DNA from: Escherichia coli
Lineage (GTDB): Bacteria > Pseudomonadota > Gammaproteobacteria > Enterobacterales > Enterobacteriaceae
Strand: one strand, 5' to 3'
Assembly: GCF_041886205.1 (NCBI RefSeq)
Contig: NZ_CP169029.1
Length of the DNA: 64,000 bases
Part shown: positions 59,410 to 59,459 of the stretch, piece after piece
Numbering within the stretch: position 1 is the first letter of the stretch
Layout: each line of letters opens with the position of its first letter
Position numbers and translations under genes: made by a program
Notes under the pieces: model-generated
What the model saw: only the letters and a program-made list of their open reading frames with translations
Told to the model about the DNA's origin: nothing
Databases searched by the model: none

Positions 59410-59459
59410 TGACTTCATACTGTGATGTCATACTATTGATGTCATAAAGTGAAGTCATA
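59410..59459 (+). promoter_or_regulatory. Four direct iterons (TGAYKTCATA) overlapping a putative hicA promoter
   Basis: tgacttcata, tgatgtcata, tgatgtcata, tgaagtcata at 13-14 bp spacing; -35 TTGACT and -10 TACTAT candidates embedded. Confidence 0.5.

Follow-up and report, generated by a model that had tools for sequence, protein, structure and literature searches.

The DNA analysed is a 64-kb stretch of Escherichia coli sequence, referred to below as the window, and all positions are those of the window. The genes around the repeats are, in order, rbbA and yhhJ (both + strand), a 72-nt gap containing four repeat boxes, hicA, hicB, a hairpin and the convergent gene nikR, followed by nikE and nikD. 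A 951-bp region of the locus is 100% identical to that of E. coli strain PT62. The stop codon of yhhJ lies 72 nt before the start of hicA, and the terminator scan predicted no terminator between these two genes. Between the convergent hicB and nikR genes the same scan returned an inverted repeat, AACTGAACTTAATTT TAT AAATTAAGTTCAGTT, which probably marks the 3' end of the hicAB operon and is possibly a bidirectional terminator. The features are listed in Table 1.

Table 1. Features of the yhhJ–nikR hicAB locus, with the basis of each assignment.
Feature	Position	Strand	Basis or remark
yhhJ, ABC-2 transporter permease	58273..59397	+	RefSeq annotation of the identical PT62 record; Pfam ABC2_membrane_3
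Predicted -35, TTGACT	59409..59414	+	Consensus promoter scan; T plus the first five bases of box 1
Box 1, TGACTTCAta	59410..59419	+	Core TGACTTCA is the family consensus
Box 2, TGATGTCAta	59423..59432	+	Within the promoter spacer
Predicted -10, TACTAT	59431..59436	+	Consensus promoter scan; 16-nt spacer after the -35
Box 3, TGATGTCAta	59437..59446	+	Covers the predicted transcription start at about 59443–59444 (placed from the -10 hexamer)
Box 4, TGAAGTCAta	59450..59459	+	Predicted 5' untranslated region, directly before the Shine–Dalgarno; reverse complement of the box 1 core
Shine–Dalgarno, AGGA	59460..59463	+	Read from sequence; 6 nt 5' of the hicA ATG (59470)
hicA, HicA-family toxin gene, frameshifted pseudogene	59470..59744	+	ORFs, Pfam, RefSeq, allele alignment
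hicB, 119-aa antitoxin, predicted repressor	59741..60100	+	PF05534, E 2e-15; Arc, E 0.008
Terminator-like inverted repeat, 15-bp stem, 33 nt	60155..60187	.	Terminator scan; between convergent hicB and nikR

The yhhJ-side hicAB module was found in about 2,050–2,070 of 5,426 complete E. coli genomes (~38%), O157:H7 included; E. coli K-12 is without it. In O157:H7 strain 86-24 (L004), an aldolase/HPr/FGGY-kinase/PTS island, not nikR, lies 3' of hicB. The module occupies a variable junction (59398–60219 in the window).

Intact alleles of hicA in other strains encode a HicA of 91 residues, as judged by alignment; the intact HicA has the accession WP_001259386 and HicB the accession WP_000593555. 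The window copy lacks one G after position 59558, where a Trp codon TGG reads TG, and the gene is split into ORFs of 32 and 62 residues in different frames; RefSeq flags it as 'frameshifted'. The HicA_toxin family (PF07927) matched the second, larger piece with an E-value of 7.6e-9. The search of PDB sequences found no relative of HicA, and the NCBIfam models gave no match to HicA or HicB. The start of hicB overlaps the stop of hicA by 4 nt (ATGA) on the same strand, and both hicB and the predicted operator are intact in the window strain despite the frameshift in hicA.

Boxes 1–4 are the + strand 10-mers TGACTTCATA, TGATGTCATA, TGATGTCATA and TGAAGTCATA. They follow one another at start-to-start intervals of 13, 14 and 13 bp, all within 50 bp, and the letters of 59400–59480 are aagggaaacT TGACTTCATA ctg TGATGTCATA ctat TGATGTCATA aag TGAAGTCATA AGGAcatgcc ATG. 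An earlier note on this DNA had described four repeats with a 13–14 bp spacing, and all four 10-mers were recovered on the + strand at the positions that it gave. Outside the locus, the 64-kb window has just two matches to the pattern TGANNTCATA. Across the whole window 18 copies of the 8-bp core TGAnnTCA were counted where 16.4 were expected, and this locus is the sole place in the window where four copies fall within 50 bp. None of 300 first-order Markov simulations gave more than two copies within 50 bp. Pairs of the form TGANNTCA-N5-TGANNTCA were matched in the window only at 59410 and 59437, with 0.11 expected. The four-box cluster is far beyond chance. A description as two pairs (1 + 2 and 3 + 4) of 8-bp pseudo-palindromes suits the boxes better than one as four equivalent direct repeats.

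The term 'iteron', which the earlier note applied to the boxes, had to be dropped; it is a misnomer because nothing at the locus relates to replication. Plasmid iterons, considered as a candidate class and rejected, are direct repeats of 17–22 bp accompanied by a rep gene and an AT-rich unwinding region; the units here measure 8–10 bp in a 13-bp register, and the locus is chromosomal, between yhhJ and nikR, without a rep gene.

The hexamers TTGACT and TACTAT, previously proposed as the -35 and -10 elements, were also returned by the consensus promoter scan. Box 1 shares bases with the -35, box 2 occupies the spacer and runs two bases into the -10, box 3 starts immediately after the -10 and box 4 ends at the base before the Shine–Dalgarno; the coordinates thus bear out the statement that the boxes cover the -35, the -10 and the region up to the Shine–Dalgarno. 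One correction applies: the hicA that follows the boxes in the window is itself a pseudogene.

The HicB sequence was compared with structures both directly and through a model. A profile built from 21 orthologues and searched against PDB sequences gave matches (E about 0.03) to the RHH domains of AmrZ and Arc alone, and no HicB structure in the PDB was detected by this profile. In the profile match, KTFTLRYPE of HicB aligns with MPQFNLRWP of Arc. The C-terminal RHH consists of a beta-strand (K79–P86) and then two helices. The AlphaFold model (pLDDT 82) has an N-terminal beta-beta-beta-beta-alpha part with a long helix and two C-terminal helices; a low-confidence segment lies between these parts, where the RHH strand is expected. 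The protein was modelled as a monomer, in which the intermolecular RHH ribbon is not expected to form. The best Foldseek matches were B. pseudomallei HicB (6g26), Y. pestis HicB3 (4p7d), E. coli 6u0i and, for the C-terminus, Arc (1b28), with weak E-values (0.02–0.9) and probabilities of 0.94–1.0. From the Pfam, profile, AlphaFold and Foldseek evidence, HicB is therefore an RHH-type HicB; modules with such antitoxins form class 4 in the Gerdes scheme (PMC10865869). The window HicB agrees with the domain plan of this class, a partial RNase-H-like fold at the N-terminus and an RHH for DNA binding at the C-terminus. The RHH strand K79–E87 (KTFTLRYPE) is invariant in the 21 orthologues, which share 60–83% identity. 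From the alignment with Arc, we infer that the DNA-facing residues are T80, T82 and R84.

Orthologous loci were scanned using one genome per species, which gave 49 loci with HicB relatives of 58–100% identity. The genera represented were Escherichia, Citrobacter, Enterobacter, Trabulsiella, Kosakonia, Photorhabdus, Xenorhabdus, Pantoea, Erwinia, Pectobacterium, Brenneria, Serratia, Sodalis, Buttiauxella, Cedecea, Budvicia, Leminorella and others. Exact TGAnnTCA boxes were counted in the 47 loci with comparable coordinates, with the 160 bp upstream of hicA taken as the zone of interest. The density was 15.7 per kb in this zone versus 0.35 per kb elsewhere, a 45-fold enrichment. Three or four boxes were present upstream of hicA in 28 of the 47 loci; exact boxes were absent from the 160-bp zone in seven, some of which are accounted for by a missing or rearranged hicA. 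Successive boxes were spaced by 13 bp in 45 of 79 pairs and by 26 bp in a further 16. The predominant box was TGACTTCA (84 of 119), with TGACGTCA making up 15 of the 119, and the 5-nt linkers are A/T-rich. By their far flanks the loci sort into 21–25 groups with no relation to one another, which ties the boxes to the hicAB module and not to its neighbourhood.

With the loci aligned at the start of hicA, the common layout reads boxA-N5-boxB, about 18 nt, boxC-N5-boxD, Shine–Dalgarno and ATG. A TTGAC[T/G] hexamer formed by a box and its preceding T (boxB in the common layout) was found in 25 of 28 related operators, and a -10-like hexamer (TATAAT, TATACT, TATGAT, TAGCAT and similar) that lies 16–17 nt beyond the -35 and reaches or adjoins the box that comes next (boxC) was found in 20 of the 28. 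E. coli, Citrobacter sedlakii and Enterobacter sp. have a variant of this layout in which the -35 box comes first, an extra box sits in the spacer and two boxes follow the -10 (box positions 0, 13, 27 and 40). Box 2 is specific to the Escherichia/Citrobacter/Enterobacter clade, and the copies of this extra spacer box in Citrobacter (TGCTGTCA) and Enterobacter (CGCTATCA) are degenerate.

Natural alleles of the locus differ in the number of boxes. In the three-box allele, a 14-bp deletion takes out exactly one unit (TGATGTCATACTAT), that of box 2, and leaves boxes at 0, 13 and 26. The TACTAT hexamer is lost with it, and the deletion recreates, as read from the sequence, a -10-like TAAAGT 16 nt 3' of TTGACT. 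The M19-type three-box allele was found in 787 genomes at ≥99% identity (that is, at least 99%) and the four-box type in about 1,240. Four boxes are not essential, since a common E. coli allele persists without one box and TACTAT. In E. coli M19 (L003, 586–790) codon 2 of hicA is TAA, so this type is probably toxin-null too; RefSeq annotates a 76-residue product with an internal CTG start. Escherichia sp. E1V33 (L006) combines three boxes with an intact hicA, and in one E. coli strain box 2 reads TGACGTCA.

Paralogues and distant relatives allowed the boxes to be compared with the HicB strand that would read them. Paralogues on Salmonella IncFII plasmids (L054 and L055; HicB 50–52% identical) have the strand KSFTLRYP and a 2 + 2 layout of four perfect TGACGTCA palindromes, with very strong RNA/DNA folding (z -4.8 and -6.2). 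These plasmid hicAB genes adjoin either ccdAB or genes for colicin lysis/immunity. In E. coli, a second hicAB lies between flhA and yafL (L056), and about 1,400 complete genomes carry it; its HicB is 45% identical with the strand KRLTLRVP, and its boxes form 2 + 2 TGACACCA/TGACGTCA pairs. Cross-talk between the yhhJ–nikR HicB and the flhA–yafL hicAB is conceivable because their boxes share TGACGTCA.

In six distant PF05534 relatives, paired boxes 13 bp apart from start to start lie upstream of hicA: TAGTACCA-N5-TGGTACTA with the strand KFNTRI (L057, Acinetobacter), TAGTACCA-N5-TAGTACTA with RFNLRI (L058), cAGTACCA-N5-TAGTACTA with KFNLRV (L062), TGATACCA-N5-TAGTACCA with RFNLRV (L064), TGGTACCG-N5-CAGTACCA with KFNLRI (L067) and TGATACCA-N5-TGCTACCA with KFSLRV (L059). 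Strands of the xFNLR, xFNTR and xFSLR types thus go with xGTACCA or xATACCA boxes. Another distant relative (L066, strand KFVVRL) gave no obvious paired boxes upstream of hicA. On the sequences compared, the invariant KTFTLRYPE strand matches the invariant TGA/TCA arms of the boxes. The box sequence varies with the HicB strand while the 13-bp register stays constant, as expected if HicB itself reads the boxes.

The four boxes very probably form the operator at which HicB, by predicted binding, would repress its own hicA–hicB operon by blocking RNA polymerase. A HicB operator is the best explanation because of the conservation of the boxes, their overlap with the promoter, the RHH-type HicB and the co-variation of box and strand. 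The putative RHH-antitoxin operator over the hicA promoter put forward in the earlier note is supported in the same way: HicB belongs to PF05534 and has an Arc-like C-terminus, boxes and promoter geometry are conserved together with hicAB across genera with unrelated flanks, and the boxes change alongside the RHH beta-strand in distant relatives. Each 8-bp TGAnnTCA pseudo-palindrome would fit one twofold-symmetric RHH dimer of HicB. Each 13-bp box pair would then be one operator unit, probably bound by two RHH dimers of a HicB tetramer, with two tetramers per operator. HicB or the HicA–HicB complex on the boxes would exclude RNA polymerase, since the boxes occupy the -35, the spacer and the edge of the -10, the predicted transcription start and the early 5' untranslated region, and the operon would be autorepressed. 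An excess of HicA would weaken HicB binding, by analogy with B. pseudomallei and K-12; in the window strain the circuit would be reduced to self-repression by HicB because hicA is frameshifted. Several points count against this operator model. The 13-bp spacing (~1.24 helical turns) sets neighbouring boxes about 85° apart on the helix, unlike those of Arc or MetJ; a flexible HicB linker (residues 68–78, low pLDDT) may accommodate this. The persistence of the three-box allele and the seven loci lacking an exact box weigh in the same direction, and read-through from yhhJ could bypass the hicA promoter.

We weighed the HicB operator against a role for the boxes in RNA or as a cruciform, for instance as a 3' stabilizer or attenuator of the yhhJ read-through transcript. 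The hairpin region lies only 12 nt past the yhhJ stop codon, and the RNA of the four boxes folds into one long hairpin, with box 1 paired to box 4 and box 2 to box 3 (-24.6 kcal/mol, z -3.7); the operator RNA of L005 gave a z of -5.3. The capacity to fold is not conserved, however: operators built of direct TGACTTCA repeats did no better than shuffled sequences, with z values of +0.5 to -1.1 in seven of 20 loci, although box sequence and spacing are conserved. The RNA structure is probably a by-product, as it is seen only where the boxes are themselves palindromic and pair with each other. Moreover, no U-tract follows the hairpin, Rfam gave no match, the three-box allele breaks the symmetry and the predicted hicA promoter would transcribe only box 4 and part of box 3. 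We consider a hairpin function in place of a protein operator highly improbable. In a yhhJ read-through transcript, the four boxes (59409–59459) would give a 20-bp hairpin after the yhhJ stop, probably as a by-product.

A host factor such as CRP, MetJ or the neighbouring NikR might also be the protein that uses the boxes in place of HicB. The MetJ box is AGACGTCT, and TGACGTCA variants look similar. TGTGA at 59421 resembles a CRP half-site, and TCATAC is present twice with nikR adjacent. CRP-S sites have been reported at other hicAB promoters (PMC11594946). Set against this, the boxes accompany hicAB into more than 20 unrelated contexts, plasmids among them, and alter when the HicB strand alters; since they move with hicAB and co-vary with HicB, a host factor is very unlikely. 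Individual host sites were also inspected and rejected. For NikR, GTATGA-N16-TCATAC is matched at the locus only with three mismatches, and the window count of 18 against 21.5 expected is chance. For CRP, there is no second half-site and the orthologues do not conserve TGTGA. MetJ boxes are contiguous 8-mers, and the 13-bp spacing here is wrong for MetJ-like boxes. That the repeats are a neutral local tandem duplication without function appears extremely improbable. In its favour, slippage does occur at the locus, given that the 10-mer of box 2 recurs unchanged 14 bp further on as box 3 and that a 14-bp deletion allele exists. The 45-fold enrichment speaks against neutrality, as does the conserved placement of the boxes with respect to -35, -10 and ATG in genera whose spacer sequence has fully diverged.

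A HicB operator of this kind has several known counterparts. Arc, MetJ, CopG and omega act at short pseudo-palindromic or repeated promoter boxes, where the beta-ribbon of a single RHH dimer reads each box; from centre to centre the boxes are 11 bp (Arc), 8 bp (MetJ) and 7 bp (omega) apart. The window boxes differ from those of Arc, MetJ and omega in being 13 bp apart, and the RHH of HicB is tethered to a toxin-neutralizing N-terminal domain. RHH-type HicBs autorepress through promoter operators, namely BS1/BS2 in Y. pestis (PMC11594946) and a palindrome over the -10 in B. pseudomallei (PMC10865869), and both proteins are tetramers (PMC11594946). Among RHH-antitoxin operators, the two at Y. 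pestis PhicA3 are the ones most like the window locus. Y. pestis HicA3–HicB3 is likewise a hicA–hicB operon with an RHH-type HicB and two PhicA operators, one of them over the -10, and is repressed by HicB or the HicAB complex (PMC11594946); for the window locus such repression is predicted. HicB3 (4p7d) is among the best fold matches of the window HicB model, although it was not detected by the subfamily sequence profile. BS1 and BS2 are 15-bp inverted repeats, whereas the window has paired 8-bp pseudo-palindromes 13 bp apart, and hicA3 and hicB3 are separated by 174 bp, whereas hicA and hicB in the window overlap by 4 nt.

In B. pseudomallei, a tetramer of RHH-type HicB sits on a palindrome over the -10 and an excess of HicA frees HicB (PMC10865869, PMC11594946). 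The B. pseudomallei HicB (6g26) is the best fold match of the window HicB, with about 11% identity in the structural alignment; its operator is a single palindromic site, in contrast to four boxes at the window locus. The hicAB genes of E. coli K-12 (yncN–ydcQ) with their operator hicO share the species, the gene order and HicB autorepression at an inverted repeat (PMC10865869) but differ in having a HicB helix–turn–helix domain, two promoters and a different locus. The literature searched contained no publication on the yhhJ–nikR hicAB locus, the regulation of its HicB subfamily or the protein accessions; an O157:H7 paper that mentions hicA/hicB leaves the measured hicAB locus unspecified (PMC5854682).

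The kind of operator is ordinary and leaves the general picture of toxin–antitoxin autoregulation unchanged, but for this branch of HicB it has not been described in the literature searched. For a HicAB subfamily without a solved structure it provides a testable operator model, with the box consensus TGAC[T/G]TCA, pairs set at 13 bp and overlap with the promoter. The four-box and three-box alleles, together with the toxin-null variants, are a convenient resource for the study of operator architecture, as is the apparent co-variation of beta-strand and box for that of RHH specificity. A broader reading that joins these observations is tentative and, taken as a whole, rather unlikely. It holds that the 13-bp register may be constant across the whole PF05534 family, set by the spacing of two RHH dimers in one HicB oligomer, and that the middle DNA-facing residue might form a code, with Thr for TGAC..TCA, Asn for xGTACCA and Ser for xATACCA. 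Lineages with a decayed hicA (by frameshift, or by the codon-2 stop with three boxes in ~790 genomes) may keep a domesticated HicB as a self-regulating repressor, and the retained HicB might cross-regulate the paralogous flhA–yafL hicAB.

The toxin of this subfamily has a sequence feature of its own. In characterized HicA toxins the catalytic His follows Gly-Ser, at a position where the subfamily has Arg. The window HicA reads GRGSRCKF (59596–59610), and Gly-Ser-Arg recurs in the subfamily as GSRCKF, GSRRKF and GSRVAV, also in L054–L057. The HxPHP motif is conserved in the subfamily HicA proteins. Judged from these sequences, the catalytic residues of the subfamily HicA may differ from those of the characterized toxins.
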